From assembly GCA_964395545.1 (NCBI GenBank), contig CAYNAW010000003.1, forward strand, positions 1 to 51,741: 51,741 bases of DNA, given 5' to 3'. Made by a program: the position numbers and the translations under genes. The notes under the pieces are model-generated. The model was not told the DNA's origin. It ran no database searches and saw only the letters and a program-made list of their open reading frames with translations. This document shows positions 1 to 33,118 of the stretch, one piece after another (the stretch's first letter is position 1; every line of letters starts with the position of its first letter). The stretch is from an uncultured Candidatus Bathyarchaeia archaeon (GTDB taxonomy: Archaea; Thermoproteota; Bathyarchaeia; Bathyarchaeales; SOJC01).

Positions 1-1026
1 ACAGCTACCTATCATTTCTTGTGAGAAACAGCGGACCGCAGAGCTTTCCATTCTGACAGATGTGATTTCAATCGGGTTTTGCCAGAGAACAGTTCCGTAA
101 GGAAGAGTTTGTCCATTATAAAAGAAGACAACCTTGTACAGATTGCCAAGCGGGTACCGATGGTACAGTGCGGACACTCCCACGTATGGACGTCCACCCC
201 ACACCCAACTGCCATCCAGGTAGGAAATATCGCCTTCTATCGACCAAGCTGTATCAACATGACACCATTTCTGATCTTTGAAAAACCGGGGGTCTTCTAG
301 CTTAACAGACCAGTGGGGGTCAGCAATGCTCTCGGAGCTCACAACTCCAAACTGGAAATACTGAACGTGGCATCCGAAAGGAAACGGCATGTTTCTGACG
401 TTGCCTGCGTAGAATTTCCTTATGATGTTCTCGCAGTCGGGCAAGCTGGCCACGTTGACTGATGTTAGTGTGGAATTGTGTTCGGAGGCGTGGACTGAGT
501 AGTGAATCCAGCCGCCGGAATCCCACCTCGCACTCACGGTCACCGGTGTTTCGGGGGCCATTCCCACGATCTGCCACGTGTATGCATAAACCAGCCGTTC
601 GGTGGGCATGTGCAAAGGCAAGCTGTCCTCTCTTGTCTGATGTAGGCCAACATCGATGAACATGTTGCCTGTTGCGTCAAGTACCAGAATCGTGTAGAAT
701 CCATAGTCTATGTGGAGGTATTGGCTGTCTTGGGCTTGGACAAACATACCTCCTCCGAGCCAACTGGAAGGAGGAAAATAATGTGGGTCTGTGGAAGGAA
801 AGCTAACCGTGACGGCCGTGGCAATCACGCCGCGAGTTATGTTGTCCAGGTTGGGGGTGTTGACGTGAAAGCCCGCCACATACGGTTGATTCGAGTTCAA
901 CTCGACGATGTGGTTTGTCTCAGCAGGCGCTAGTTCAAAAGTGTTGGCAGACTTCACGCCTGGAACTGCACTCAATGATGTCACAATCAATAAGGCTATG
1001 AGGGGAACTATGCGGTCTTCGCACAA
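1..1026 (-). CDS. hypothetical secreted or membrane-anchored protein, partial (3' end runs off the window)
   Basis: My own minus-strand translation gives an uninterrupted frame from 1026 to position 1. It is absent from the ORF track because no stop lies inside the window. An in-frame TAG at 1081-1083 bounds it upstream. The probable start is TTG 1024-1026, about 10 nt after AGGGGTGG. The N-terminus RIVPLIALLIVTSLSAVPG looks like a signal anchor. The rest is rich in W/Y/G and I recognise no family. Confidence 0.55.
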   Translation of the reverse strand, partial: MCEDRIVPLIALLIVTSLSAVPGVKSANTFELAPAETNHIVELNSNQPYVAGFHVNTPNLDNITRGVIATAVTVSFPSTDPHYFPPSSWLGGGMFVQAQDSQYLHIDYGFYTILVLDATGNMFIDVGLHQTREDSLPLHMPTERLVYAYTWQIVGMAPETPVTVSARWDSGGWIHYSVHASEHNSTLTSVNVASLPDCENIIRKFYAGNVRNMPFPFGCHVQYFQFGVVSSESIADPHWSVKLEDPRFFKDQKWCHVDTAWSIEGDISYLDGSWVWGGRPYVGVSALYHRYPLGNLYKVVFFYNGQTLPYGTVLWQNPIEITSVRMESSAVRCFSQEMIGSC

Positions 1027-1697: not shown

Positions 1698-1982
1698 CTA
1701 TTTTTTGGTGGGTTCTACCACGTCTTTGATGTCCGTGGCCTTCTTGTCCAAGGAGATGAGGTCTCCTATGGCTTTGATAATGGATACAGGTAATAGAACC
1801 TCCACTGATCCCAGAAATGGTTTCTTGTATCCAAGTTCTTTCGTCGTCTCTTCTGTCAGTCTCACATGTAGATGGGTGATTCGCCATGTGGGTAGCAGTT
1901 CTACCTCGACGCCAGTAACGTTGCCGATCAATCGGGCGTCATCACTGACTACGTTCTTTTCAAGGAGCTGGTTCACATTCAC
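1698..1982 (-). CDS. PRC-barrel domain protein
   Basis: 94 aa with a PRC-barrel-like pattern (VVSDDARLIGNVTGVEVELLPTWRITHLHV). Its start overlaps the stop of the upstream M50 protease gene by 4 nt. Confidence 0.7.
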   Translation of the reverse strand: MNVNQLLEKNVVSDDARLIGNVTGVEVELLPTWRITHLHVRLTEETTKELGYKKPFLGSVEVLLPVSIIKAIGDLISLDKKATDIKDVVEPTKK

Positions 1983-3109
1983 CGCTGTTCTTCACCTCCC
2001 AATTCCGTTTTGACTTTGATGACGTGGACAATATCACTACGAGTAACAATTCCCACAAGCTTTTCATCCTCTTGAACTGGAAGTCGTCCAACGTCATATC
2101 TCGCCATTTTCATCAGGGCTTCTACCGCGGTTTCATCGGGGCTTGCGCATTTCAGCTTCTCATAAGGTGTCATTGCCTGACTTATTTTGGTTTCTCGCCA
2201 TTTTTCCTTAGGAATCTTCCTTATGTCTTGAAGTGTAACCAGCCCAAGCAATTTAGAGTCCTTTTCAACTGGAAATCCGCCATGCTTATACTGTGAAAAG
2301 TGGGTTCCCACAACGTCTCCGACTAGGGCGTCGGGATTAACCGTATGAACTTCACGGGTCATTATATCGCGGATAAGGACGCCTGCCAAAGCCTCACTCA
2401 TAATAGTCTGTCGATAGCTTGACTCAGCCCCATTCTTCAAAAACCATCCTATCAGTATCAACCACAAGCCTCCGATGAACACTCCCAAAATGACAACAAA
2501 GAAACCCCAGAAAATCAGTATATAAGAAAACAAAACACCAACCCTAGTCGCGATCCTAGTTGCATATGTTCGATCTTTCTTCCAACGCCAAATTCCCGCC
2601 CTAAGAACTCTTCCACCGTCGAGCGGAAAGGCGGGTAACAGATTGAAGCCGCCTAATAGCACATTAATATAAGCTCCATATTCTAAGGGTGCAATCACCA
2701 CAACGTTGGCCCCAAAAAAACCAACAGCATACTGTAGCGACCATAAGATCAAAGCAAGGAGAAAGCTTGTAAGAGGTCCAACTAACGCAATCCTAAATTC
2801 AAGACCCGGCTCATTCGGTTCTTCCTCGATTTCGGATACGCCGCCAAAAATGAAGAGGACGATACGTTTCACTGGCAAGCCGTTTTTCTTAGCTACATAC
2901 GAATGAGCTAATTCATGAACTAGAACGGACACAAAAAGCACAATTGCTGCAATGGCGCCTATTAACCAATAAGCCTCTGAAGAAAGCCCTGGATATTCTG
3001 AAGGCAGATAGCCTATTGCCAGAGTCCAAGTAATAAGCAATACGGCGAGAATCAGCGTATAATGCAGCTTCACTGGAACACCTAACAGCCTGCCGATTCC
3101 TAAAGACAA
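1979..3109 (-). CDS. site-2 protease family (M50) zinc metalloprotease with C-terminal CBS pair
   Basis: HELAHS (HExxH) in a TM helix, NLLPAFPLDGGR second metal-ligand motif, multiple TM segments and two C-terminal CBS repeats. TTG start. Confidence 0.9.
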   Translation of the reverse strand: MSLGIGRLLGVPVKLHYTLILAVLLITWTLAIGYLPSEYPGLSSEAYWLIGAIAAIVLFVSVLVHELAHSYVAKKNGLPVKRIVLFIFGGVSEIEEEPNEPGLEFRIALVGPLTSFLLALILWSLQYAVGFFGANVVVIAPLEYGAYINVLLGGFNLLPAFPLDGGRVLRAGIWRWKKDRTYATRIATRVGVLFSYILIFWGFFVVILGVFIGGLWLILIGWFLKNGAESSYRQTIMSEALAGVLIRDIMTREVHTVNPDALVGDVVGTHFSQYKHGGFPVEKDSKLLGLVTLQDIRKIPKEKWRETKISQAMTPYEKLKCASPDETAVEALMKMARYDVGRLPVQEDEKLVGIVTRSDIVHVIKVKTELGGEEQR

Positions 3110-3702: not shown

Positions 3703-4884
3703 TCACAGTTCCGTTAGAGGAAAATGTGTTCGACGTAAATAGTTCCTGATGTAGTCTTGGTCGTACTCGAATTCCTTGCTTCTGAGAACCTGTCTTTCCA
3801 GTCTGTCTAAGGCTACGCGAAAGGTCGGCTGCACCCCCCATCCTTCACTGGAGCTGTAGAAAGAACCCTTCCTGGTTCGCAGTTGGAGGCGGCAATGAAT
3901 AAGTTGTCTGGCTGAGTAGTTTGTGCCATGAGTCTTCATGTAGATGAACAGCGTGCCAGCCTCTAGCGTTCCTTCGTATCTTCGTGCGAAAGAGTCAAAA
4001 TCGCCCAATATGGAACCTTGCTGGCTTTCATCTATGTCCAAGTCCTTGACGGAAAACTGCACTGCGAGTCTTCGGTCTCGCATTTCTATTTGGGCTATTG
4101 GTTCGAGAAAGTCCAGCTTTGTTATTATCCCCACAGGTCTTCGTCTTCTGACAATCACCAACGAAGATATGTCGAATTTTTGCATTTCGTGCAGTGCATT
4201 CCTCAGTGTTGCTTCAGGCAATACAGTTATGACAGGTTTTGTCATTATGCCCTTTGCTGGAACGTTTAGTAGACGAACCTTTTCGCCAGCTCTCTCGCCA
4301 GGTTTTTGGCGTTGCTTTGGTTGGAAAACATGTTCAATGATATCGTGAATGCTAACAATTCCGACGAGTCTTCCGTTGCTGACTACTGGAATGTGAGAAA
4401 TGTCCTGCTCTCTGAAGAGGTTGAGCACCACTCCCACAGATTCATTTTCCTCAACAACAACGGGTTCCTTACTCATGATTTCCTCAACTCTGCTGTTCCC
4501 CCATTTTCCCATAACAGCCTCGCGAATCACGTCTTCGTCCGTGACAAATCCGAGTATCTTCTCGCTGCTGAAAACTGGAAGTTGCCTAACGCCACTCTCT
4601 ATCATCAGCTTCGCGGCCCGGCTAAGAGAATCCTGTAACGCGACTTTGGGCGCTGAGCGCATCAGAGTCTTGACTTTGGTTACGGAAGGATCAAGCCTAG
4701 ATCTGACTATCCATCTTCTGGCGATTACACCCTTATATTTGCCTCTGTCATCCCAAACGGCTAGAACCAGTGGCATCTCTTTTTTGAGGAGGGAAAGGCA
4801 ACGGGAAAGTGTATCACTCTCGAGAACACTTGCGAAATTTCTTGAAAAGGCGCTTTCAACCTGTGCGGTCATCACGAACTCCAT
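3703..4884 (-). CDS. CBS-domain protein (4 CBS repeats) with C-terminal HPF/RaiA (S30AE)-like domain
   Basis: Four CBS repeats in res ~25-265. The last ~100 aa (VQFSVKDLDIDES...IHCRLQLRTRKGSFYSSSEGWGVQPTFRVALDRLERQVLRSKE) follow the beta-alpha-beta-beta-beta-alpha pattern and the S.EG...A.D.L...L..K signature of bacterial HPF/YfiA. Confidence 0.8.
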   Translation of the reverse strand: MEFVMTAQVESAFSRNFASVLESDTLSRCLSLLKKEMPLVLAVWDDRGKYKGVIARRWIVRSRLDPSVTKVKTLMRSAPKVALQDSLSRAAKLMIESGVRQLPVFSSEKILGFVTDEDVIREAVMGKWGNSRVEEIMSKEPVVVEENESVGVVLNLFREQDISHIPVVSNGRLVGIVSIHDIIEHVFQPKQRQKPGERAGEKVRLLNVPAKGIMTKPVITVLPEATLRNALHEMQKFDISSLVIVRRRRPVGIITKLDFLEPIAQIEMRDRRLAVQFSVKDLDIDESQQGSILGDFDSFARRYEGTLEAGTLFIYMKTHGTNYSARQLIHCRLQLRTRKGSFYSSSEGWGVQPTFRVALDRLERQVLRSKEFEYDQDYIRNYLRRTHFPLTEL

Positions 4885-5381: not shown

Positions 5382-8114
5382 TTGGCTCAGGAAAATGCTT
5401 GGCATGCAGAAAGAGTCGAACAAGTACTCAAAAGACTCGAGACAAGTGAAAGAGGACTAACAAGCGCCGAAGCAGAGAAGAGACTGAGAGAGCACGGGAC
5501 GAACGAACTAGAAGAAGAAAAACGAGCAACCAAATTAGCTTTGCTTGCCCACCAACTCAAGAACCCTCTGGTCGGTGTACTCGTCGCCGCTGCCTTGATT
5601 TCCTTTCTTGCTGGAAAAATGATCGATACCGTAGTTGTGATTGTCGTTATCGTCTTCAACACATCAATTGGTTTCATCCAAGAGCACAAGGCAGAAACCG
5701 CTCTTCAAGCTTTAAAATCAATGGCAGCACCCGAAGCCGAAGTGATTCGTGATTGTCCTGAAACTGGTGGCTGCATCGAAATGCGTGTCAAGGCCCAGGA
5801 AATCGTCCCCGGGGACATAGTGCTTCTGGATTCAGGAGACAAAGTTCCTGCAGATACTCGCGTTCTTGAGGCGATAAACCTCGAAATCGACGAGTCCATG
5901 TTGACTGGTGAATCGACACCGGTGAGAAAAGCGACCGAGCCTTTAGAAGAGGAGTTGCCTGTGGCCGATAGAGCGAACATGGTCTTCTCGGGCACAATAG
6001 TAACCCAAGGAAGAGGGAAAGCAGTCGTAGTCTCCACAGGAATGAAGACAGAGATAGGAAAAATCGCCAAGTTGATAAAAGAGACTAAAAGAGCTGAGAC
6101 TCCCATTCAAAAGCGAACAGTGGACTTGAGCAGGAAACTTGGGCTCTTCGCGTTGTTTGCAAGCGGTTTAGTCCTTGTACTAAGCGTCCTCCGAGGATTC
6201 GAATTTTACGAAGTGTTTCTCTTCGCTTTGGCATCTGCAGTCTCGGCCATCCCGGAGGGGCTGCCCGCAGTTATGACGATCACGTTGGCTGTTGGAGTCA
6301 ACAGGATGGCTAAGCGCAATGCCATAATCCGGAAGCTGCAGGCAGTTGACACTTTGGGCTCAGCAACGGCGATTTGCACCGACAAGACTGGGACTCTCAC
6401 TACAAACCAGATGACCGTACAGAAGATATTCGTGGACAACAGAACGGTCAATGTCACTGGTGCTGGCTATACGCCTGAAGGGCATTTTGAAGTAGAAGGT
6501 GACGCAGTAGATCCGGCGACCGATAACGCGCTCAACCTCTTGCTTCAAATTGCTGCCCTCTGCAACGACGCTAGGCTCAGGCGGCACGAAGTCAAGGAGG
6601 GGTTCCGATGGGAGATCTACGGTGACCCTACAGAAGGGGCATTGGTTGTTGTAGCGGAGAAGGCAAAACTCGTAAAGCATGAATTGGAAAAAAGGTTTCC
6701 ACGAGTCGACGAGATTCCCTTCAACCCCAAGGAGCGATACATGGCTACGTTTCACAAGGCGTCAGATGGAGGCCTAAGCGTCTATGTTAAAGGCGCTCCT
6801 GAGACTCTCTTGGAATGGTGTTCAGAAATTCTGGAAGGCGGCAAGACGAAGAAGCTGACACAACAGAAGAGAGAGGAGATTTTCCGAGCCAGCACTCACA
6901 TGGCCGGAGAGGCGCTCAGGGTGCTGGCAATGGCTTATCAGACAGTAGAAACAAAAGACATAGACAGTTTTAAGGAAAAACTGTTACATAGACGCGCCAA
7001 GCTGGTTCTTGTTGGTCTGGCGGGAATGATCGACCCGTCCAGACCAGAGGCGAAAACTTCAGTGCAACTATGCAAAAGGGCGGGAATCAAGGTCATCATG
7101 GCAACCGGAGATCACAAACTGACGGCAGAGGCTATCGCCAAAGAAGTTGGAATCCTTGAATCGAACTCGAAAGTCCTAACTGGACCGGATCTCGACAGTA
7201 TTGATGATGACGAGTTAGACGCCGTGATAGAAGAAACAGCGGTCTTTGCCCGTGTATCTCCAACACATAAGCACCGAATTGTCGTATCTCTAAGGCGGAA
7301 AGGGCATATTGTGGCTATGACAGGCGATGGTGTCAACGATGCTCCCGCCCTAAAGGCCGCGGAAATCGGCGTTGCGATGGGAATCACGGGAACAGATGTC
7401 ACAAAGGAAACTGCGGACATGGTGTTGGCCGATGACAATTTTGCCAGCATCGTAAACGCAGTCGAAGAAGGCCGTGTAGTGTTTGAAAATATACGAAAAG
7501 TTGTAAAATACTTGATTGCCACCAACACGGGAGAGATCATTACAATATTGACTGCACTCATTCTTCTGCCTGACGCTCCGCTCATTTTCACGCCAGTGCA
7601 AATATTGTGGGTTAATCTTGTAACCGATGGAATCCTCGATGTCACTCTGGCAATGGAGGCAAAAGAAGAAGATATCATGGATCAACCTCCCAGGAAACCT
7701 ACTGCAAAGATAATAAATCGAGAAATTATGATGAACACCATCTATATTGGCACATTTATGATGCTTGGAACTCTCTGGGTTTTCACAAGGGAGTGGAACA
7801 ACGGAGACATTGTCAGAGCGCAGACTCTAGGCTTCACCACTCTGGCCATGTTCCAAGTGTTCAACTCGCTCAACTGCAGATCAAGAACCAAGTCCATATT
7901 CAAGCTTGGCTTGTTTACAAACAGATATTTGTTGGGCGCCATTGCTGTGTCCGTTTCTTTGCAAGTGTTGGCAACGATCTTGCCTCCGCTTCAGATTGGC
8001 CTCGGCACTACTTCGCTTTCGATTTGGGACTGGATAACGATAATCGGTGTTTCAAGTTCAGTCTTCTTCGCTGACGAAATCAGAAAACTATTAAGAAGCA
8101 GGTTAAAGAGATGA
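5382..8114 (+). CDS. P-type cation-transporting ATPase (P2-type, Ca2+/cation pump-like)
   Basis: 910 aa with DKTGTLT phosphorylation motif, TGES, MATGDH, TGDGVNDAPALK and about 10 TM segments. TTG start with SD. Confidence 0.95.
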   Translation: MAQENAWHAERVEQVLKRLETSERGLTSAEAEKRLREHGTNELEEEKRATKLALLAHQLKNPLVGVLVAAALISFLAGKMIDTVVVIVVIVFNTSIGFIQEHKAETALQALKSMAAPEAEVIRDCPETGGCIEMRVKAQEIVPGDIVLLDSGDKVPADTRVLEAINLEIDESMLTGESTPVRKATEPLEEELPVADRANMVFSGTIVTQGRGKAVVVSTGMKTEIGKIAKLIKETKRAETPIQKRTVDLSRKLGLFALFASGLVLVLSVLRGFEFYEVFLFALASAVSAIPEGLPAVMTITLAVGVNRMAKRNAIIRKLQAVDTLGSATAICTDKTGTLTTNQMTVQKIFVDNRTVNVTGAGYTPEGHFEVEGDAVDPATDNALNLLLQIAALCNDARLRRHEVKEGFRWEIYGDPTEGALVVVAEKAKLVKHELEKRFPRVDEIPFNPKERYMATFHKASDGGLSVYVKGAPETLLEWCSEILEGGKTKKLTQQKREEIFRASTHMAGEALRVLAMAYQTVETKDIDSFKEKLLHRRAKLVLVGLAGMIDPSRPEAKTSVQLCKRAGIKVIMATGDHKLTAEAIAKEVGILESNSKVLTGPDLDSIDDDELDAVIEETAVFARVSPTHKHRIVVSLRRKGHIVAMTGDGVNDAPALKAAEIGVAMGITGTDVTKETADMVLADDNFASIVNAVEEGRVVFENIRKVVKYLIATNTGEIITILTALILLPDAPLIFTPVQILWVNLVTDGILDVTLAMEAKEEDIMDQPPRKPTAKIINREIMMNTIYIGTFMMLGTLWVFTREWNNGDIVRAQTLGFTTLAMFQVFNSLNCRSRTKSIFKLGLFTNRYLLGAIAVSVSLQVLATILPPLQIGLGTTSLSIWDWITIIGVSSSVFFADEIRKLLRSRLKR

Positions 8115-9067
8115 GTGCCAAGAAATCGAAATATGAAGTTGAACCCATTTCCATCGAGGAAAAAAACGTGCTAATGGGAAAATACGGTGAACGGCTCTTG
8201 TATGAGGAGAGAGCCGACATCTATGGCTGTTGTATTAAACTCTCCACCGACACAAAGTATGTCAAGGAACGCTGGGAAGAGAACTTCTACCCGATGTCAG
8301 CGCATGTCAGATCTCATGGAAGAATGGTAGTCACCGAAGAAGATGATGAAGAACAGCGCGTATTCTACGACCAGCTTTCGAAAACTGCCTTTCTAATCAA
8401 CGTCGACTATTATGGTTGGGTTAAATCAATAGCCCTCAGTATTGCCAGCGACATCCTTGAAGATAATCATGACATAGACTCAGTTCACGGCGCTTGCATA
8501 GACATTGATGGACAAGGAGTATGCCTAATAGCTCCCTCTGGAACAGGTAAAACAACCCACACCTACGGTCTTCTCAGGCTTCCCGGTGTTCGCGTTGTAT
8601 CCGACGATTGGTTCTTCGTTCGCCTGAGTGCAGGCCAAGCTCTCGCATTCGGTTCTGAGAAAAATTTCTACATCCAAGCCGACATTGCCGACAACTGGGG
8701 CGAATACCAGAAACTGGTAGACAAAGCTGATTTTGACTCAAAGGGCAGAGCAGTCGTCAACGTCAGATGGGTTATTGGCAAAGGAAAAATCTTGCCTATG
8801 ACCACATTGAAGAAAGCTATACTGCTGAAAAGGGAACCCGAGGACAAGGAAATCGTCAGCCGGCTGTCACCAGAAGAAGCAACCCGCTACATGGTAACTG
8901 TCGACTTCTCTAACCCCCACATGCTTGTGAAGGATGAACGAAAGATGAACTTGAGAAGACAATTCTTCAAAAAATTCTTTGCTCCTTTAGAAACCCATGC
9001 TGTTAATACCACAGCTCCAGTGCCTGAAGTTCATAAGGTCATTAAAGAAAACGTGTTAGGGTTATAA
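8111..9067 (+). CDS. HPr kinase/phosphorylase-like (PEPCK-like fold) P-loop protein
   Basis: VHGACIDIDGQGVCLIAPSGTGKTTHTYGLLRLPGVRVVSDDWFFV resembles the HprK C-terminal core (HG..vdi.G.GVLi.G.SG.GKS....L...G..LvaDD). Its ATG overlaps the ATPase stop (ATGA). Confidence 0.65.
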   Translation: MSAKKSKYEVEPISIEEKNVLMGKYGERLLYEERADIYGCCIKLSTDTKYVKERWEENFYPMSAHVRSHGRMVVTEEDDEEQRVFYDQLSKTAFLINVDYYGWVKSIALSIASDILEDNHDIDSVHGACIDIDGQGVCLIAPSGTGKTTHTYGLLRLPGVRVVSDDWFFVRLSAGQALAFGSEKNFYIQADIADNWGEYQKLVDKADFDSKGRAVVNVRWVIGKGKILPMTTLKKAILLKREPEDKEIVSRLSPEEATRYMVTVDFSNPHMLVKDERKMNLRRQFFKKFFAPLETHAVNTTAPVPEVHKVIKENVLGL

Positions 9068-9094
9068 GACAAGTCACTTTGTGTGGGGATCTAT

Positions 9095-10057
9095 GTGCGC
9101 AAAATCGGTGTGGTAACGGCTGGCGGCGATGCCCCTGGAATGAATTCTGCAATCCGCTCGATAGTGCGAACCGCAATATTCAACAAGATGGAAGTTGTGG
9201 GCGTCGAAAGAGGTTACGCGGGGCTTGTTGAAAGAAGGGTTCGCCCTTTGGATATCCGCTCCGTCAGTGGAATAATCAATCTTGGCGGAACAATACTCAG
9301 AACCACGCGATGTGAGGAAATGAAAACTGAAGGAGGGATTCAAAGAGCCAGTAGTACCTTGAGGACTCACAAAATCGATGGGCTAATCGTAATTGGAGGT
9401 GACGGCTCCTTCAGAGGAGCGAGCGAACTACACGATGCCAGCCAGATACCCGTTATAGGAGTACCTGCAACAATAGACAACGACGTCGCAGGCACAGACG
9501 TCACCATAGGCTTTGACACAGCCGTCAACACTGCCCTATTCACAATTGACCGAATTCGTGACACTGCTACTTCTCATGAGCGAGTGTTCGTGGTTGAGGT
9601 GATGGGACGAAAAAGAGGTTTTCTAGCTCTTGCTGTAGGATTCGCTGAAGGTGCCGAGTTCATACTTGTTCCAGAAATCAAATTCAACCTAGAATCCATC
9701 TGCAACAAACTCATGCAAGGACGAAAGAAAGGAAAAACCTCAGAAATAATAGTCATGGCAGAGGGCGCTGGGAATTCCTCTCTAATCGCCGAAGAAATAG
9801 GAAGGAAGACTGGATACGATGTTCGCTTGACAATACTTGGCCATGCTTTGAGAGGAGGACCGCCTACAGCTCAAAGCAGAATCCTCGCCGGCCAATTTGG
9901 AGCACACGCTGTAGACCTCCTTCTGAACGGCGCGAAGAAAAGTATGGTTGGAATAAGAGGGCAACGAATCGTATCAGTGGATTTGGATATTTCCTGGAAG
10001 AGCAAAAAGGATTTGAACAAGCGTTCCTACCGTCTAGCTGAAATCTTATCATCATAA
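9095..10057 (+). CDS. pfkA: 6-phosphofructokinase, PfkA family
   Basis: RKIGVVTAGGDAPGMNSAIR, GGDGSFRGA, PATIDNDV and MGRKRG motifs. GTG 9095 is preferred over GTG 9083 because homologs begin at ..IGVLTSGGDAPGMN and GGGGATC lies upstream. Confidence 0.9.
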   Translation: MRKIGVVTAGGDAPGMNSAIRSIVRTAIFNKMEVVGVERGYAGLVERRVRPLDIRSVSGIINLGGTILRTTRCEEMKTEGGIQRASSTLRTHKIDGLIVIGGDGSFRGASELHDASQIPVIGVPATIDNDVAGTDVTIGFDTAVNTALFTIDRIRDTATSHERVFVVEVMGRKRGFLALAVGFAEGAEFILVPEIKFNLESICNKLMQGRKKGKTSEIIVMAEGAGNSSLIAEEIGRKTGYDVRLTILGHALRGGPPTAQSRILAGQFGAHAVDLLLNGAKKSMVGIRGQRIVSVDLDISWKSKKDLNKRSYRLAEILSS

Positions 10058-10207
10058 TGGGGGATTGAATTCGTAGACCCTACGAGCGAGAATGAAAACT
10101 GGAGAGTAGAGAGTTGCTGACTTTGAATCCCCTCAATTTGGGAGAGTCTAAGATCACAGAATTATCAACCACTGCAAACGTTGAAGTTGAAGAAAGGAGG
10201 AGAAAAC

Positions 10208-11320
10208 ATGTATGAACTTCTCATAGAATTGTTGGTGGGCGTTCTAAGAGGCATAGTCTATGGCGGAGCCGCAGCTTTTCCCATAATCTTCCTATCATTA
10301 ATATTTAGATATTTCACGAATGAGAAGCTGCCCTCATTCATAGGTATAATCTTAGGCCTGGGAATTCTAGGTATCTCAGGTGGTCTTATCGCGGTGCTAG
10401 AGCAGACTACAGTTGAAGGTGTCACTCAGGTCGTCATTGCTAGCATTGTGATTGTTTGGAGCGTTGGCGTTGGAGACAAGATGGCTGAAAGGATCCCAAA
10501 GGGAGGAGAACCCCTGTTCCACGCGCTGAAAGGTAGAAAATCAAAATACATTACGATAAAACTGCCTAATAGGCGCTTGATATACGATATATCAGGAAAG
10601 CCACGAGTTATTGACGAACTCAAAGATGAGTTGTCCGAGAGAGAATTCGTCTTACCCCTTGACTTTTCAATAGAAGAGATGGTCAGTAGGATTAGAAGAA
10701 GACTGATCTCAGACTGGGGCGTTGGCGATGTCGAACTCGAATTGGATAGAATGGGCAAAGTGGTCTATCTTGCAGTATCAGCTAAGGAATTTGGTCTCAG
10801 TGAAACAACGCCAAAAGGAAGGATAGCGGTACCCGTAAAATGCGATATGATTCCTTCTGGCTTATCCTCTAATGACATCGTAAGAATTTACTTGAAAGAC
10901 AAGGTAGTCATTGACCAGGTTGAGGTCAAAGGTGTAAGCAAAGAAGACAAGATAGTCACCGTTGTCGTGGATCCAGACTCTTTTGAGAAAATCATGGAAA
11001 AAGAGGCACAATTGATCGTAGCTCTGCCATTCGCGAAACGGAAGTCTGTTCCGATTACCGTGAAGAAACGTTCAGGTACACTTGAAGAGTTCAACATTGA
11101 AAAAATATTCTCTTCAATTGTAGATGCGGGGGCTCATGAGGAATTGGCAAAAGAGATCGCTGAAAAGATTGAAGCGAGATTCTCCAAACTAACTACCCCC
11201 ATCGAAACGGAAGAATTGAAGGAAATTGTCGTTGAGGAATTGGAGAAAGCAGACCTGCAGATTTCTAAGAAATTCAAGAATTACAAGAAATCAGCGAGGC
11301 CACAATCGAGGTCACAGTGA
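10208..11320 (+). CDS. membrane-anchored protein with C-terminal ATP-cone domain
   Basis: About 3 N-terminal TM helices and a central soluble region. The C-terminus ITVKKRSGTLEEFNIEKIFSSIVDAGAHEELAKEIAEKIE...TEELKEIVVEELE...KFKNYKK matches the ATP-cone consensus. ATG 10208 is preceded by AGGAGG; the track start at 10181 is TTG. Confidence 0.8.
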   Translation: MYELLIELLVGVLRGIVYGGAAAFPIIFLSLIFRYFTNEKLPSFIGIILGLGILGISGGLIAVLEQTTVEGVTQVVIASIVIVWSVGVGDKMAERIPKGGEPLFHALKGRKSKYITIKLPNRRLIYDISGKPRVIDELKDELSEREFVLPLDFSIEEMVSRIRRRLISDWGVGDVELELDRMGKVVYLAVSAKEFGLSETTPKGRIAVPVKCDMIPSGLSSNDIVRIYLKDKVVIDQVEVKGVSKEDKIVTVVVDPDSFEKIMEKEAQLIVALPFAKRKSVPITVKKRSGTLEEFNIEKIFSSIVDAGAHEELAKEIAEKIEARFSKLTTPIETEELKEIVVEELEKADLQISKKFKNYKKSARPQSRSQ

Positions 11321-11470
11321 ATTTGGAAGGAATTTGGTGAAACTCGCGATACGCGGGCGAGCTGTTCGTTATACCGCGACCAAAGTCAAAAGCTAAATGC
11401 TGAAGACAGGAAAGCTACAATGGGACTCCGGATTTATTAGTTCGCTCGGAAGGAGAGGAGGAAAAGCAGG

Positions 11471-13147
11471 ATGGAAGATCTACAAGAAACGATCAAAGAG
11501 GAGAAAATCTCCTATTTTTCAATGGAAATAGGACTATCTAATGAAATCCATACATACTCTGGAGGCTTGGGAGTTCTCGCTGGCGATACGATAAGGGCAA
11601 GCGCAGATCTGAAACTACCACTTGTGGCTGTCACATTGGTGAGCAAAAAGGGATACTTTAGGCAAGAATTAACACATGATGGACGGCAGATTGAATATCC
11701 TCAAGAGTGGAACCCATTTCAATTTATGAAACTGCTGCCCGTGGAGACGAGTGTACAGATTCAAGATAGAAACGTGAGGATCAAAACCTGGCTTTACAGA
11801 GTGCAAAGCATAACAGGAGGAATGGTTCCAGTCCTTTTTCTCGATACGGATGTGGAAGGAAACATTCCTGAAGATAGAGAGATCACTTTCTTTCTTTACG
11901 GAGGGGATGAGAAATACAGGCTAAGACAGGAGATTGTTTTGGGAATCGGCGGCGTAAGAATGCTTGATGCTTTGGGCTTCAAAATCAGAAGATATCACAT
12001 GAACGAAGGTCACTCTAGCCTTCTTGCCTTAGAGCTATTGAACAGGTTTGGGATGAACCTTGAAAGGGTTCGCGAGTCGTGTATTTTTACAACTCACACT
12101 CCAGTGGAAGCAGGACATGACAGGTTTTCATATGATACTGTTAGAGAGATTCTGGGACAAAACACTGATTTGGAAGTCTTGAAAAGATTCAGTGGTTATG
12201 ACGAACTAAACATGACGCGCCTAGCCCTAAATCTGAGCAACTACATCAATGGAGTAGCCAAAAAGCATCGTGAGGTTTCCAGGCAGATGTTTCCGGGTTA
12301 TGAGATTCACGCAATAACAAACGGCATTCACTCTTACACATGGACGTGCAGGGGTTTTAAGAAACTATATGACAAATATCTGCCCGGCTGGGCAAACGAT
12401 CCAGATCTGCTTGTAAGAGTGGACAGTATTCCTGACGAAGACATTTGGGAAGCCCATGAAGAAGCAAAAAAGGTTCTGATTGATCACGTTAACAACGCAA
12501 CCAACGTGGGTATGGATTACAATACGTTAACCTTAGGATTCGCAAGAAGGGCGACAGAATACAAAAGGGCTAACCTTCTGTTCTCAGATATAGAAAAACT
12601 GAGAAAAGCAAATAGACAGGGTAAGATGCAGCTAATTTTTGCTGGAAAAGCTCACCCCCGAGACGATTCGGGGAAAAGGCTAATCAAAGAAACTTTTGAC
12701 TACATCGAAAGGCTGAAGAATGAAATCAAGATCGTCTATTTAGAGAATTACGACATGGAACTCGCGGCAACATTAATCTCTGGAGTTGATGTTTGGCTTA
12801 ACACGCCTTTACAACCCATGGAGGCTTCTGGCACAAGCGGAATGAAGGCAGCTCACAACGGCGTGATAAACTTCAGCGTATTAGACGGTTGGTGGATTGA
12901 AGGCTGGATTGAGGGAGTCACCGGCTGGGCTATCGGATTTCACCCAGACGACCATAGGTCACTGGAGGAAAGCCAACTTAGAGAGCTTGATGACCTGTAC
13001 AGCAAGTTGGAAAACGTGGTCATTCCTATGTTCTACCAGAAAAGAGCTGATTGGATAAAAATGATGAGAAATTCGATAGGAAAGATCGCTTACTACTTTA
13101 ACAGTCACAGGATGATGCGCAGATACGTAACCGAAGCTTACTTGTGA
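11471..13147 (+). CDS. glgP: alpha-glucan (glycogen/maltodextrin) phosphorylase, GT35
   Basis: YFSMEIGL...YSGGLGVLAGD N-terminus and EASGTSGMKAAHNG pyridoxal-phosphate lysine motif. Strong SD GGAGAGGAGG. Confidence 0.9.
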   Translation: MEDLQETIKEEKISYFSMEIGLSNEIHTYSGGLGVLAGDTIRASADLKLPLVAVTLVSKKGYFRQELTHDGRQIEYPQEWNPFQFMKLLPVETSVQIQDRNVRIKTWLYRVQSITGGMVPVLFLDTDVEGNIPEDREITFFLYGGDEKYRLRQEIVLGIGGVRMLDALGFKIRRYHMNEGHSSLLALELLNRFGMNLERVRESCIFTTHTPVEAGHDRFSYDTVREILGQNTDLEVLKRFSGYDELNMTRLALNLSNYINGVAKKHREVSRQMFPGYEIHAITNGIHSYTWTCRGFKKLYDKYLPGWANDPDLLVRVDSIPDEDIWEAHEEAKKVLIDHVNNATNVGMDYNTLTLGFARRATEYKRANLLFSDIEKLRKANRQGKMQLIFAGKAHPRDDSGKRLIKETFDYIERLKNEIKIVYLENYDMELAATLISGVDVWLNTPLQPMEASGTSGMKAAHNGVINFSVLDGWWIEGWIEGVTGWAIGFHPDDHRSLEESQLRELDDLYSKLENVVIPMFYQKRADWIKMMRNSIGKIAYYFNSHRMMRRYVTEAYL

Positions 13148-13718: not shown

Positions 13719-14561
13719 CTATAAGGGTATTTTTCTGCCGTCGAAGTCTCTCTTGCAGCGTCCAAACTCGTCTTCAACTTCTCGGAGACGTTCACTTGTG
13801 AAGATGGGGCCGTCTATGCACACGCGGTATTTGCCGATTGTGCAGCTGCCGCATAGTCCTATGGCGCAACGCATGAGCCTTTCTAGACTCGCCTGCAAGG
13901 GGATTTTGTGTTTTTCGGCCAGCAAGTAGACTTTGAAAAGCATCGGTTCTTTTCCACAAGTGTAAATCATGTCAAACTTGTCTCTTCTTAAGATGCTCTC
14001 CGCCAGCTCTGTTACAACTCCTTTATGTCCGTAGCTTCCATCTTCTGTGGACGCTGCTAACTCGGTTCCTTCCTTCGAAAGCAGGTTCTTGAGCCTTGCT
14101 AGGAAAAGCAGCTCTTCTTTAGACTTAGCACCTAGTACGAATGTGACTTTCGCTCCCAGTTTCAGCAGGTTCTCTGACAAGAAAGCGAGCGGGGCTATTC
14201 CGGTTCCGCCGCCTACTAAGAGAGCTTTGCCCCTTATTGGCTGGAAGTGGTTGCCGAATGGACCTCGAACACCGATGGTTTCGTCTTTTCGCTTTTTATG
14301 CAGAAGCTCGGTGGCGTCGCCCACTTTTGCCACTGTTATCGAAGCTAGATCTTTGGAGGCAGCAGAAAGGCTCATGGGAATCTCGTCGAAGCCTGGAAGC
14401 CAGACCATGACAAACTGTCCAGGCTTACCTCCTGCACAGAGCGGGTCGTCGAAGTAGAAGGTTTTGACGAGAGGGCTTTCCCTGACTATTTTCCTGATTC
14501 TTACTGTTCTCTGGAAGTTAGTTTCGATGGGAACTGCCGACAATTTCTTCAACACTTCCAA
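13719..14561 (-). CDS. pyrK: dihydroorotate dehydrogenase electron-transfer subunit
   Basis: FAD/NAD-binding ferredoxin-reductase fold (GQFVMVW, LLVGGGTGIAP) and C-terminal 2Fe-2S Cys cluster CAIGLCGSCTIG..VCIDGP. Lies downstream of and overlaps pyrD. Confidence 0.9.
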   Translation of the reverse strand: MEVLKKLSAVPIETNFQRTVRIRKIVRESPLVKTFYFDDPLCAGGKPGQFVMVWLPGFDEIPMSLSAASKDLASITVAKVGDATELLHKKRKDETIGVRGPFGNHFQPIRGKALLVGGGTGIAPLAFLSENLLKLGAKVTFVLGAKSKEELLFLARLKNLLSKEGTELAASTEDGSYGHKGVVTELAESILRRDKFDMIYTCGKEPMLFKVYLLAEKHKIPLQASLERLMRCAIGLCGSCTIGKYRVCIDGPIFTSERLREVEDEFGRCKRDFDGRKIPL

Positions 14562-15429
14562 TTCTTTTCTTCCTCAGAAAGGCGTCTATTCCCTCTGTCA
14601 CATGTTTGAACACTTCTAATCCTCTAAATGCAATTGCTGTCCCGATTTGGATTGCTGATGCACCTGCATGGATGAACTCGACCGCGTCTCGCCACGAGCT
14701 GATTCCGCCGCATCCTATGACTGGGACTTTCACGGTTTCATAGACATCGTAGACGCACCGAACCGCTATCGGCTTGATCGCCGGACCCGACAAGCCTCCG
14801 ACCTTGTTCCCAAGAATAGGCTTGGCAGTCTCCACATCTATCACCATAGCCTTCACGGTGTTTATGGTGGTCACGCCATCCGCGCCTCCTTTCTCTGCGG
14901 CTCTAGCCACCTCTGCAATGCTGGCGACGTTGGGCGTCAACTTGACAAAAACTGGTTTTTCCACCTTTCTCTTTACGGCCTTTACCACTTCCTCAACAAG
15001 CCTTAGGTCTTGCCCAATCTCGGCGCCAGTTTTCTCTGCATGGGGACATGAAACGTTTAGCTCCACTCCTCCTGCACCGATTTTCACGGCTTGTTCGGCC
15101 ACTGCAGCGAATTCCTGAGGTGTGTAGGCGTAGACGCTGGCTATTACGGGAACTCCTATTCCACTCGCTTCACGCATTTCCTGGGCAAAATGCTCGACGC
15201 CGGGGTTGGGAAGCCCCATCGCGTTAATCAGTCCACAGTCAACCTGCGCCACGGTGGGGTTGGAGTATCCACAGCGAGGCTGTAGACCCAATGATTTCGT
15301 GACAACCGCGCCTGCCCCTGCCTGTGCCACCCGCTTCAGCGTGAAACCCGACATGCCGAGTATTCCTGCCGCCAACATCGTGGGATTCTTCAGTTTCAGG
15401 CCTGCAAGATTTACCGTCAAATCCGCCAA
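14518..15429 (-). CDS. pyrD: dihydroorotate dehydrogenase (class 1B) catalytic subunit
   Basis: NPTMLAAG, NAMGLPNPG, ELNVSCPH and GGLSGPAIKPIA motifs. Confidence 0.95.
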   Translation of the reverse strand: MADLTVNLAGLKLKNPTMLAAGILGMSGFTLKRVAQAGAGAVVTKSLGLQPRCGYSNPTVAQVDCGLINAMGLPNPGVEHFAQEMREASGIGVPVIASVYAYTPQEFAAVAEQAVKIGAGGVELNVSCPHAEKTGAEIGQDLRLVEEVVKAVKRKVEKPVFVKLTPNVASIAEVARAAEKGGADGVTTINTVKAMVIDVETAKPILGNKVGGLSGPAIKPIAVRCVYDVYETVKVPVIGCGGISSWRDAVEFIHAGASAIQIGTAIAFRGLEVFKHVTEGIDAFLRKKRIGSVEEIVGSSHRN

Positions 15430-26003: not shown

Positions 26004-27190
26004 AAGAATGCGGTAAGGATGATGGAACTGAATATTATGCTCATTATGACCGCTCCGAAGCCTCCTAGAAAGGCTTTGTTCCAAGAGAGCTCCTGCATCT
26101 TTTTCAGGGCGATCGTGCACAGGACGGTAGTCCAGGCATAGTATAGTAGGCTCAGGATCGAGATGGGCAAGCCCCAGTTGTTTTGGTAGATTGCGATGTA
26201 TTCTTCATAGGCAAAGTTGTACGGGACGAAGATGGGGGGCAAGACAAGGAAAACTAGGGCGAGGGCTCCCTGATAGACGAGTGTCACTGAATAGATATAG
26301 CCCAAGGTGCTCACTAGGTTCTTCCAGACACCACTCCACTTCGAGACGCTCTTCAATATTAAGAAAGCTATTGCCGAGAGCATTAGCCATCTAATCAAGA
26401 AATCGGTGACGCTTCTCATGATCCAGAATATGCTCAGCAATGTGATGTCGTCCCACATAACGGTGTAGAATCTGCCAAAGAAGAGGTCGTCTATCTTCAG
26501 CGTGAGCGTCGACAGGTCTGCCCATGAAACCACGAGTCCTATGCCGGTAATGTTGTCCCAGCTCGGCGCGTTCTCGGCTGTCCAATCGTCGCCTGCAAGG
26601 TTTACGCTGACGTTTGCCCACGTGTCACCTGTGTCCGCCAAAAGGTCGCTCACATCGAGTTCAAACCGTTTGTCTTCATCGTTGAGCGAGAAGAGCTGCA
26701 GCGTAGCATCGGTAGGCGTCACGTTTCCTGCATTAATCCATTTTGTCCTAAGCGATAGGCGACCATACTCTTCTTTGGAGCAGTTGATGCTTCCTATGCC
26801 TGTAAGCCGCAACCAGATGGACGAGCCATTTCCCAGAGTGGCTGAGACCGTGTCGTTGCCAACGATGGTCTCGTAGTTTTCGAACGTTATGTTGCCGTTT
26901 GAGCTCCACTGAAACAGGGTCGAATTCGTCGGGTGTTCTGTCCACAAGTCTTTCTCCGGCTTCGGGTCTTCAAAGAAGAACTTGGTTCCGCTGAGGTATT
27001 GTGCGCCTATGGTTAGGGGTAGCGTTATCAGCAGGATTAGGATTGGACCCTTGATGTTCGGTTTCTTCACTATTTCCTCGAAGGTCTTCACGGGAGAGTA
27101 GAGAACCCCGAACACCCATTTCACGAATTGGACACGGCTCTCTTTCTCTTCTTTCCTTTCTTCGGCGGGCAGAGTTTCTTCTGCTGTCAA
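26000..27190 (-). CDS. Yip1-domain-like membrane protein with large extracytoplasmic insert
   Basis: VFGVLYSPVKTFEEIVKKPNIKGP Yip1-type N-terminus and 5 TM segments. Beta-rich loop of about 170 aa with many N-x-S/T sequons. Its TTG start overlaps the HMGCS stop (TTGA). Confidence 0.65.
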   Translation of the reverse strand: MTAEETLPAEERKEEKESRVQFVKWVFGVLYSPVKTFEEIVKKPNIKGPILILLITLPLTIGAQYLSGTKFFFEDPKPEKDLWTEHPTNSTLFQWSSNGNITFENYETIVGNDTVSATLGNGSSIWLRLTGIGSINCSKEEYGRLSLRTKWINAGNVTPTDATLQLFSLNDEDKRFELDVSDLLADTGDTWANVSVNLAGDDWTAENAPSWDNITGIGLVVSWADLSTLTLKIDDLFFGRFYTVMWDDITLLSIFWIMRSVTDFLIRWLMLSAIAFLILKSVSKWSGVWKNLVSTLGYIYSVTLVYQGALALVFLVLPPIFVPYNFAYEEYIAIYQNNWGLPISILSLLYYAWTTVLCTIALKKMQELSWNKAFLGGFGAVIMSIIFSSIILTAFF

Positions 27191-32746: not shown

Positions 32747-33118
32747 TTGCCTTACTGTTCGAAATGTGGCTCTAAGACTGCAGAAGAGATGAAATACTGT
32801 CCCAAATGCGGGGCTTCCCTCAAGGGTGAACCTGTTGCCAGAGAGGTTTCAGAGAAGCATGAGAAGCGCGAGAAACAGGAGAAGCATGAGAAGGAAGAGA
32901 AGGGCGAGAAACACGAGAAGGACGAAACGAGTCGTTTCTGGGCTTTGATCGGCGGTGTCATGCTACTAATCCTGGGACTCGTTTCGTTCGTCGCAATCGT
33001 GTTCGGCTTTCCAGACCCATGGCGCGGAGCCTTTATCCTAGTCATACTCGGCGTGTTCATCATAATCGTGGCTCTCTACGGCACAGTCAAAGCCTCCCAG
33101 AGAAGCCCGAAGCCTTAA
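32747..33118 (+). CDS. zinc-ribbon membrane protein with His/Glu/Lys repeat linker
   Basis: CSKCG-x11-CPKCG, then EKHEKREKQEKHEKEEKGEKHEKDE, then two TM helices. TTG start. Confidence 0.6.
   Translation: MPYCSKCGSKTAEEMKYCPKCGASLKGEPVAREVSEKHEKREKQEKHEKEEKGEKHEKDETSRFWALIGGVMLLILGLVSFVAIVFGFPDPWRGAFILVILGVFIIIVALYGTVKASQRSPKP
32852..32926 (+). repeat. in-frame (E/K)EKHEK low-complexity coding repeat
   Basis: gagaagcatgagaag units reiterated about 4 times within CDS 32747-33118. Confidence 0.8.

Follow-up and report, generated by a model that had tools for sequence, protein, structure and literature searches.

A probable orthologue of the archaeal ribosome hibernation factor HibA, with four CBS domains and an HPF/RaiA-like domain, in an uncultured archaeal genome

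We identified a complete gene in a 51,741-nucleotide stretch of archaeal DNA (the window) whose 393-residue product is very likely orthologous to HibA (also named Hib or AHA), a factor of ribosome hibernation in archaea. The protein aligns with the P. abyssi HibA chain 9sr9_H at E 6.9e-59 (query residues 7-385 against chain residues 4-387) and with 9l96_a, a solved 406-aa CBS protein, at E 3.2e-41, with both parts of the protein covered in the latter match as well. The next best matches are to CBS-only proteins, the best of which is Sri (9znf_4, E 3.9e-16). An earlier note, made from the letters of the DNA, had guessed at a CBS tetrad fused to an HPF/RaiA domain, and our analysis supports this architecture, which is already known from HibA/AHA through cryo-EM work published in 2025-2026. 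The open reading frame to which the guess referred is real, but the interval given for it, 3769-4884, starts too late and thereby drops residues 373-393 (21 codons) and the stop codon. The features of the gene and its product are collected in Table 1.

Table 1. Features of the hibA-like gene and of the protein it encodes (positions are those of the window)
Feature	Residues	Positions	Strand	Description or basis
Complete hibA-like ORF		3703..4884	-	393 codons and TGA stop at 3703-3705; ORF list, translation
CBS module	1-269	4078..4884	-	Four CBS domains, two Bateman pairs; Pfam, AF2, Foldseek
CBS1	~8-62
CBS2	~70-124
CBS3	~132-187
CBS4	~210-266
CBS3 motif GIVSIHD	G175-D181	4342..4362	-	G-h-h-S/T-x-x-D; putative ribose-binding signature
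Long CBS3-CBS4 loop QPKQRQKPGERAGEKVRLLNVP	188-209	4258..4323	-	Equivalent of HibA 'PTC loop' / AHA 'loop 3'
CBS4 motif GIITKLD	G252-D258	4111..4131	-	G-h-h-T-x-x-D; putative ribose-binding signature
HPF/RaiA-like domain	270-393	3706..4077	-	AF2, Foldseek, profile matches
beta1 LAVQFSVK	273-280			AF2 model
alpha1 ESQQGSILGDFDSFARRYEGTL	286-307			AF2 model
beta2 GTLFIYMKTHGT	310-321			AF2 model
beta3 QLIHCRLQLRT	327-337			AF2 model
beta4 GSFYSSSEGW	340-349			AF2 model
alpha2	351-385			35 residues, then short tail; AF2 model
TATA-like TTATTTAA		4919..4926	-	Purine-rich AAAGTAG before it; 34 nt upstream of ATG; read by eye

The host is probably a member of the Bathyarchaeia, an uncultured archaeon. 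Genes for Nop5, fibrillarin, Trm1 and a ThrRS with the archaea-specific editing domain give the window an archaeal gene content, and the nearest orthologues, at 63-69% identity, come from Bathyarchaeota and uncultured archaeon MAGs. An exact-sequence look-up of the 393-aa protein returned no record. Scanning the window for Rfam families and tRNAs gave no match, and thus the gene has no associated RNA element. Mapping the phyletic distribution of the CBS-HPF fusion, as the earlier note had proposed, yielded homologues in 149 clusters at 50% identity (E <= 1e-30), nearly all of them 355-405 aa long and co-linear with the query. Among the homologues of the tail, we also considered a family of ~180-aa 'CBS4+HPF' proteins and rejected it for the three loci that we examined: one carries a frameshift, another an in-frame stop, and the third meets a contig edge, and each time the apparent short protein arises because gene callers restart at the conserved Met214. 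Disrupted hibA copies are present in related metagenomic contigs, one with a frameshift (L005) and another with an in-frame TAA (L006).

The N-terminal part of the protein is a CBS tetrad, in agreement with the four repeats originally claimed: Pfam CBS matches four stretches (E 1.4e-46), and AF2 modelled the full protein at a pLDDT of 92.9, with the CBS module above 90. A Foldseek search with the full-length model returned the ribosome-bound CBS tetrads SriA/B/D and Dri, together with MJ1225 and AMPK gamma; CBS tetrads alone were retrieved because the HibA structures are newer than the structure set that was searched. In the CBS module, 95 of 262 residues (36%) are identical to P. abyssi HibA, and the window protein matches 85% of the conserved columns, ranking second among 129 homologues. 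Conservation in these 129 homologues is particularly high in the two G-h-h-S/T-x-x-D-type motifs, reaching 98% for G175 and 90% for D181 in CBS3, and 98%, 93% and 96% for G252, T255 and D258 in CBS4. By the general pattern of CBS domains, GIVSIHD and GIITKLD are putatively involved in ligand binding. The nucleotide site lies at the CBS3/CBS4 interface in both HibA (PMC13324472) and AHA (PMC12934967), and the same interface in the window protein would most likely bind AMP, ADP or ATP.

The C-terminal part resembles bacterial HPF and RaiA, a resemblance that is not significant on the single sequence and is far beyond chance at the level of the family, the profile and the fold. The whole protein had no match to PF02482 (Ribosomal_S30AE), the profile by which the earlier note had suggested checking this region. 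The isolated tail spanned profile positions 4-85 of 88 with E 0.19 and 12.9 bits, below the gathering threshold of 23.7 bits, and NCBIfam gave no match on the isolated tail. Since this result is unusable on its own, we turned to family-level tests, and here the HMM check was positive. PF02482 was matched individually by 44 of the 129 full-length homologues (E <= 0.01; best E 5.6e-8). Besides CBS, no further family recurred in more than two of the 129. Furthermore, a profile of 56 tails matched about 20 distinct bacterial HPF, RaiA, YfiA and protein Y chains at E 3e-6 to 1e-2. Given that the tail itself falls below the threshold but a third of its family (44/129) matches PF02482, we regard it as a distant homologue that lies outside the bacterial subfamilies.

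Structure comparison points in the same direction. The tail was modelled separately for its own Foldseek search (pLDDT 93.0), and ranks 1-37 were all HPF, RaiA, YfiA or pY, including V. cholerae HPF (4hei, TM 0.87, rmsd 1.9 Å), E. coli HPF (2rql, TM 0.79) and YfiA (4v8i, TM 0.79); the first unrelated fold appeared at rank 38 (E 0.02). The superposition on HPF/YfiA that the earlier note had proposed as a check is therefore borne out. The parse of the tail into strands and helices that had been made by eye was essentially right when set against the AF2 model, except that beta3 and beta4 had been merged and that the last helix, read as PTFRVALDRLERQVLRSKE, was far too short. The E. coli HPF motif quoted alongside it is genuine, being present in the PDB sequences 4v8h_AX and 6h4n_x, and is aligned by profile to the YSSSEGWGVQPTFRVALDRLERQVLRSK region.

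Although homology to bacterial HPF, RaiA (YfiA, protein Y) and plastid pY is detectable by profile, the window protein departs from these PF02482 proteins in several respects. In the profile alignment, the beta2-beta3 hairpin of E. coli HPF is ~9 residues shorter, and the last helix of the window protein is much longer; insertions and a longer terminal helix are archaea-specific HPF elaborations described for HibA/AHA, and both are found here. Bacterial HPF is either a stand-alone protein (~95-115 aa) or a long HPF with a dimerisation domain, whereas the HPF-like domain of the window protein follows a 269-residue CBS module, has no dimerisation domain and is followed by nothing beyond its extended helix. 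The similarity to P. abyssi HibA is closer: the two proteins are 393 and 392 aa long, and share a domain order (four CBS, then HPF/RaiA-like) with a boundary near 269/270, a long CBS3-CBS4 loop with G-E-x-x-G-E-K, and an extended C-terminal helix. They differ in their hosts, a hyperthermophilic euryarchaeon on one side and a mesophilic-type organism, uncultured and probably of the Bathyarchaeia, on the other. AHA likewise combines four CBS domains with HPF, and its PTC-entering loop and CBS3/CBS4 nucleotide sites correspond to those of the window protein, but it is more distant in sequence than P. abyssi HibA. The solved protein 9l96_a is putatively a haloarchaeal orthologue, probably related to AHA; we found no relevant paper in the literature on the PDB codes 9L96, 9L98 and 9L9C.

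The functions of these orthologues have been studied in detail. For the P. abyssi protein (PAB0961 / Q9UYR4; PDB 9SR9-9SRF and 9T7H), described together with T. barophilus F0LKU5 (Madru et al., Nat Commun 2026, PMC13324472), cryo-EM of HibA on 70S and 30S particles placed the CTD in the 30S mRNA/tRNA channel, which it blocks, and the CBS module in the 50S tRNA sites (PMC13324472). HibA inhibits in vitro translation, for which the C-terminal domain is required, and a delta-hibA strain has ~60% fewer 70S ribosomes and delayed regrowth (PMC13324472). Haloferax volcanii AHA is likewise ribosome-associated, carries AMP between CBS3 and CBS4, and has been linked to a reported competitive fitness defect (PMC12934967). 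Ribosome binding, inhibition of translation and the preservation of 70S ribosomes in stationary phase have been shown for HibA of P. abyssi and T. barophilus and for H. volcanii AHA. The site in the 30S mRNA/tRNA channel is common to bacterial HPF/RaiA and the HibA/AHA orthologues (PMC13324472, PMC12934967).

Based on these orthologues, the window protein may be expected to bind ribosomes, inhibit translation and bind nucleotides. By homology to the cryo-EM structures, its basic CTD, with the HPF/RaiA fold, would occupy the small subunit's mRNA/tRNA channel and cover the A and P sites as well as the decoding centre, and its N-terminal four-CBS disc would lie on the large subunit where tRNAs would otherwise sit, from where the long CBS3-CBS4 loop could reach the peptidyl-transferase centre. 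With one domain on each subunit, a single polypeptide would bridge the two and hold the idle 70S ribosome together, and under starvation or stress the bound factor would block translation and protect the active sites against degradation. The further idea, a direct coupling of AMP, ATP or SAM sensing to the inactivation of ribosomes by the fusion, is not established. For AMP, HibA has a Kd of 12 uM and thus a tighter grip than on ADP or ATP, and neither AMP nor ATP clearly changed its binding to the ribosome (PMC13324472). The HibA and AHA papers that we consulted give no support for SAM binding.

The CBS3-CBS4 loop is among the features that tie the window protein to HibA. The HibA 'PTC loop' (PMC13324472) and AHA 'loop 3' (PMC12934967) are inserted into the peptidyl-transferase centre, a role that we predict for the window protein. 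Its loop QPKQRQKPGERAGEKVRLLNVP aligns with residues 189-206 of P. abyssi HibA, PRFKAQYGELAGEKIPPF, and keeps the pattern P-x-x-R...G-E-x-x-G-E-K...L; its length of 22 residues is the mode of the family (86 of 129 homologues). Conservation across the 129 homologues is 64% for P189, 77% for R/K192, 74% for G196, 55% for G200, 71% for E201 and 65% for K202. At the PTC-loop contacts of the P. abyssi protein, 10 of 15 positions are identical or similar here; Y195, which stacks its aromatic ring on A2834 in P. abyssi, is a proline in the window protein.

The contacts of the CTD with the 30S subunit are less well kept. The domain is 23% identical to that of P. abyssi HibA, and 9 of the 53 contact positions are identical and 18 identical or similar (34%), against family means of 21% and 41%. 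Several basic contacts are substituted (R299->S, R326->S, R347->S, R362->D and R379->D), and the best-conserved contacts, namely V275, Q276, Y315, T337, G340, R364, L367 and E371, are retained. Given that the 30S contacts are poorly conserved family-wide, transferring individual residues from P. abyssi neither supports nor undermines function. Since a number of basic residues at 30S contacts, and the aromatic residue that stacks in the PTC, have been replaced, one might propose that a Bathyarchaeial HibA docks differently from the Pyrococcus prototype, and perhaps that it is also tied to the neighbouring M50 protease and PRC-barrel pair, for example through proteolytic removal on exit from dormancy; we consider this very unlikely.

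The same neighbours underlie a related reading, in which HibA, the site-2-type M50-CBS protease encoded downstream and the PRC-barrel-like protein form a conserved module, with HibA subject, for example, to regulated proteolytic release. The minus-strand run described in the earlier note is present: the hibA, M50-CBS and PRC-like genes all fall inside 3.2 kb of that strand, there is a 4-nt overlap between the M50 and PRC-like ORFs, and Pfam recognises a CBS pair in the protease (E 2.8e-26 and 8.2e-25). However, the PRC-barrel assignment is sub-threshold (E 0.038; E 0.25-0.54), and between hibA and the protease lie a gap of 206 nt and an ORF for a membrane protein of 116 aa. Moreover, TTATTTAA is a possible promoter of its own for hibA, a candidate that we hold with low confidence. 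In our comparison of four loci (L001, L002, L005 and L007), the run is not conserved beside the closest orthologues, L001 and L002, whose neighbours are unrelated (NAD synthase, DUF1801, FtsZ/tubulin and rubrerythrin versus UbiA, PCC, HAD and prenyltransferase), and dihydroorotate dehydrogenase genes flank hibA at L005 and L007. With synteny absent in L001 and L002, we rejected a conserved operon with the M50-CBS and PRC-barrel genes, and the module as a whole is very improbable.

An equally improbable reading makes the protein a regulator of metabolism or transcription of the CBS-tetrad type, with an HPF-like domain that has come to serve a partner other than the ribosome, such as a DNA replication or recombination protein. 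Pull-downs with Thermococcales HibA did report interactions with replication and recombination proteins (Madru et al., PMC13324472), the window protein lacks many of the contact residues of P. abyssi HibA, and NCBIfam gives weak matches to the CBS regulators PrdR (68 bits), HhpR (55 bits), SpxR and CcpN. These matches, however, involve the CBS repeats only and lie far under the cut-offs, 520 bits in the case of the CM-3/HhpR regulators, and Pfam found no DNA-binding domain. The end-to-end alignment with ribosome-bound HibA and the retention of the PTC loop and of the best-conserved CTD motifs also argue for a ribosomal role. In the CTD, 79% of the family-consensus columns are kept, including E347-G-W-G350 and L362-E-R-Q365. 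Finally, a decaying gene copy whose CTD no longer binds ribosomes is scarcely credible: several basic contact positions are substituted, the net charge of the CTD is slightly lower than the family median (+2 versus +4) and the L005 and L006 copies are disrupted, but the ORF is intact, the AF2 model is confident throughout, contact-residue retention is near the family mean, and the protein is among the most consensus-like members in both its CBS module and its CTD (rank 7 of 129 for the latter).

The HibA architecture draws on an HPF/RaiA hibernation module common to Bacteria and Archaea and physically ties an AMPK-gamma-like nucleotide sensor to the ribosome. This significance has already been argued and tested by several groups in 2025-2026, for HibA and AHA and for the related Dri, Sri and ARC. 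Our locus adds only an intact, well-conserved orthologue from an uncultured, probably Bathyarchaeial genome, which could serve as a mesophilic comparison. The HibA family can be recognised from raw sequence.

Other CBS proteins can be told apart from the HibA orthologue described here. Dri of Pyrobaculum calidifontis (9E6Q/9E7F), SriA-D of Methanosarcina acetivorans (9ZNF/9ZNG/9ZNI) and ARC-P/ARC-A of Methanolobus bind functional sites of the ribosome and have structurally similar CBS tetrads (Foldseek E 4e-21 to 1e-14), but lack an HPF/RaiA domain, and their sequence similarity to the window protein is confined to the CBS repeats at E 4e-16 or worse. Dri consists of two fused CBS modules, whereas Sri and ARC are single tetrads with small occlusion elements, acting in tandem as separate proteins. 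The published distribution predicts that HibA and Dri or CM-1/2/4/5 proteins exclude one another. AMPK gamma and MJ1225 share the four-CBS disc with adenine-nucleotide sites (Foldseek E ~1e-17); AMPK gamma, however, lacks an HPF domain, serves a kinase complex as its regulatory subunit, and is ~17% identical to the window protein.

The window locus is an ordinary orthologue of HibA/AHA, the archaeal hibernation factor that joins four CBS domains to an HPF/RaiA-like C-terminal domain. All four CBS domains proposed in an earlier note were recovered by Pfam (E 1.4e-46), and the protein aligned from end to end with PDB chain 9sr9_H, the ATP-bound Pyrococcus abyssi HibA on the ribosome, its residues 7-385 pairing with 4-387 of the 392 in that chain (E 6.9e-59). 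A second solved CBS protein, 9l96_a (406 aa), followed at E 3.2e-41, and CBS-only proteins matched at best with E 4e-16. HibA was discovered through cryo-EM of stressed cells, consists of four CBS domains (1-269) and an HPF/RaiA-like domain (270-392), and is carried by 47% of archaeal genomes (Madru et al., Nat Commun 2026, PMC13324472); its Haloferax volcanii orthologue, AHA, was reported in an independent preprint, which counts AHA in 2,723 of 6,968 archaeal species (PMC12934967). The window protein has the same length and domain boundary, and it shares the long CBS3-CBS4 loop (residues 188-209, QPKQRQKPGERAGEKVRLLNVP), which is of modal length and keeps the family pattern P..R...GE..GEK...L. 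Also retained are EGWG (347-350) and LERQ (362-365), the motifs best conserved in the C-terminal domain. Since it matches 85% of the conserved columns in the CBS module (rank 2 of 129) and 79% in the C-terminal domain (rank 7 of 129), it is, judged by its sequence, a near-consensus family member and not a degenerate one. Apart from the 30S contact residues considered below, every defining HibA/AHA feature that can be tested at the level of sequence and structure is present. Given these publications, and a published survey database that already contains Bathyarchaeia genomes, the proposed fusion is already known and experimentally characterised.

The HPF/RaiA-like nature of the tail (residues 270-393) is settled by three independent family-level tests. 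The Pfam Ribosomal_S30AE profile (PF02482) aligned with the isolated tail over profile positions 4-85 of 88 at E 0.19 and 12.9 bits (cut-off 23.7 bits), a resemblance that would not be significant from the window sequence alone. Searching 1.84 billion representative proteins gave 149 clusters with E <= 1e-30, almost all of them 355-405 aa long and co-linear with the window protein, indicating that the two-part architecture is conserved. PF02482 was matched individually by 44 of the 129 full-length homologues (E <= 0.01; best 5.6e-8), among which no other non-CBS family recurred in more than two members. When a profile of 56 C-terminal domains was searched against all PDB sequences, two archaeal CBS-fusion proteins came first, followed at E 3e-6 to 1e-2 almost only by bacterial HPF, RaiA/YfiA and protein Y chains. 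The alignment with E. coli HPF was co-linear, running from strand one through to the final helix, and the HPF motif quoted in the earlier note indeed fell opposite YSSSEGWGVQPTFRVALDRLERQVLRSK. AlphaFold2 modelled the protein with a pLDDT of 92.9 (93.0 for the tail), and Foldseek placed HPF, RaiA, YfiA or plastid pY structures at ranks 1-37 against the tail model (TM-score on target 0.7-0.87, rmsd about 2-3 A), with an unrelated fold first appearing at rank 38 (E 0.02). The modelled elements (beta 273-280, alpha 286-307, beta 310-321, beta 327-337, beta 340-349, alpha 351-385) agree essentially with the secondary structure first proposed, except that IHCRLQLRTRKGSFYSSSEG splits into two strands and the final helix extends much further.

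The tail is thus clearly homologous in fold to bacterial HPF/RaiA. However, the protein belongs to none of the bacterial subfamilies, being sub-threshold in Pfam, different in architecture, and longer in its hairpin and terminal helix. Factors of the Dri, Sri or ARC type are ruled out because they lack an HPF domain, and an HhpR-type regulator is ruled out by a score of 55 bits against a cut-off of 520.

In P. abyssi, the C-terminal domain occupies the 30S mRNA/tRNA channel, touching h18, h23, h24, h28, h31 and h44 as well as uS7, uS9, uS11, uS12 and uS19, in a manner like that of bacterial HPF with more contacts (PMC13324472). The CBS module takes three alternative positions on the 50S subunit (PTC, uL5 and L1 stalk), and when it is at the PTC its long loop wraps around A2834; translation in vitro is inhibited only with the C-terminal domain present, and deleting hibA in T. 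barophilus lowers stationary-phase 70S ribosomes by about 60% and doubles the lag phase (PMC13324472). By analogy, the window protein would work likewise, its C-terminal domain lying in the 30S mRNA/tRNA channel and its CBS module on the 50S subunit. At the 53 P. abyssi C-terminal-domain contact positions mapped onto it, which are poorly conserved family-wide, 9 residues are identical and 18 similar (family averages 21% and 41%); the best-conserved 30S contacts are kept and several basic ones are not. Because contact residues are poorly conserved, as the HibA authors themselves note (PMC13324472), this comparison is uninformative rather than negative.

The isolated HibA CBS module binds AMP (Kd 12 uM), ADP (65 uM) and ATP (113 uM) at the CBS3/CBS4 interface, with AMP bound most tightly, whereas GTP and GMP are not bound; ribosome binding was not clearly altered by either AMP or ATP (PMC13324472). 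In AHA, two molecules of AMP lie between CBS3 and CBS4 (PMC12934967). The window protein carries the G-h-h-S/T-x-x-D signature in CBS3 (GIVSIHD) and CBS4 (GIITKLD), with Asp and Thr 90-96% conserved across the family; CBS1 (GVIARRW) lacks it. These signatures would fit nucleotide binding at the orthologues' sites. Direct coupling of energy-charge sensing to ribosome inactivation is a hypothesis common to the earlier note and the published work.

The interval first assigned to the gene, 3769-4884, covered residues 1-372 only, the real end lying 66 nt further on. A TATA-like element (TTATTTAA), read from the sequence 34 nt upstream of the ATG, and a 206-nt gap after the stop codon suggest that the gene may be transcribed as a separate unit. 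The rest of the window reads as ordinary archaeal chromosome, with Nop5, fibrillarin, Trm1, RNase HII, ProRS and a ThrRS with an archaea-specific editing domain, and contains no further CBS-tetrad or HPF-like gene within its 51.7 kb. An exact-sequence look-up found no identical protein in the public collection; the nearest genomic relatives, 63-69% identical, come from one Candidatus Bathyarchaeota MAG and uncultured-archaeon MAGs.

Coordinates of the features discussed (L005-L007, related metagenomic contigs)
Feature	Coordinates	Strand	Remarks
hibA-like ORF	3703-4884	-	393 codons, uninterrupted, TGA stop
M50 (site-2-type) metalloprotease	1979-3109	-	C-terminal CBS pair
94-aa PRC-barrel-like ORF after M50 gene	pair spans 1698-3109	-	sub-threshold similarity
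Lower-G+C gene run	5382-13147	+	
Dihydroorotate dehydrogenase B genes	13719-15429	-	
542-aa ORF	27187-28815	-	3-oxoacyl-ACP-synthase-III C-terminal domain
Thiolase	28703-29908	-	
381-aa protein	33115-34260	-	GH3-family N-terminal domain
Relative of window 3703-4884	L005:532-1714		1-nt insertion frameshift, ~180-aa call
Relative of window 3703-4884	L006:2-1087		single in-frame TAA at window Q193 position (PTC loop), ORF otherwise intact
Relative of window 3703-4884	L007:11-553		contig edge, short call
Dihydroorotate dehydrogenase B genes	L005:2370-4086		downstream of hibA, convergent
Dihydroorotate dehydrogenase B genes	L007:574-1338		downstream of hibA, convergent

Pfam bore out the M50 protease with a CBS pair reported downstream of hibA, and support for the accompanying PRC-barrel protein was weak (E 0.038 in Pfam; E 0.25-0.54 to PRC-barrel proteins in the PDB). 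These two genes overlap by 4 nt (GTGA) and are likely translationally coupled. Neither adjoins hibA in the two closest orthologous loci, where its neighbours are NAD synthase, DUF1801, an FtsZ/tubulin homologue and rubrerythrin (L001) or UbiA, PCC, HAD and a prenyltransferase (L002), and gene order indicates no functional link with hibA. In L005 and L007, the electron-transfer and catalytic subunits of dihydroorotate dehydrogenase B lie directly beside hibA, whereas in the window they lie about 9 kb away on its other side, which suggests local rearrangement in this lineage.

Many tail homologues have a length of about 180 aa and begin at the equivalent of window M214, a Met 95% conserved at which gene callers restart in L005, L006 and L007. 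A distinct short family is rejected for these three loci, each explained by its own lesion or contig edge; the TAA in L006 may reflect true nonsense mutation, readthrough or an error in sequencing. A 128-aa metagenomic fragment (P0002), 76% identical to the window tail, carries the JGI annotation 'ribosome-associated translation inhibitor RaiA', so some pipelines evidently recognise the domain in the absence of the CBS repeats. PDB 9i5v chain 14 (401 aa), named RaiA in an entry cited in a Porphyromonas gingivalis ribosome paper (PMC12123416), gave a weak match to the C-terminal-domain profile (E 0.31) over its C-terminal residues 318-400; it may represent a bacterial protein of unusual length that ends in an HPF-like domain.

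Elsewhere in the window, the lower-G+C run (0.43-0.49 against 0.50-0.55 in the rest) encodes a P-type cation ATPase, a bacterial-type ATP-dependent phosphofructokinase, an ATP-cone protein, a phosphorylase-like protein and a 318-aa protein whose HPr-kinase C-terminal (P-loop) domain is just sub-threshold (31.4 against 33.3 bits; PDB HPrK E 0.002); it may be an acquired sugar-metabolism block. The thiolase and the 542-aa ORF look like an archaeal thiolase/HMG-CoA-synthase-type pair; their listed overlap is 113 nt, and the real start of the ORF is probably further downstream. The GH3 (acyl-acid amido synthetase) domain, detected at E 8e-22, belongs to a family known chiefly from plants, and its presence in an archaeon is unexpected.
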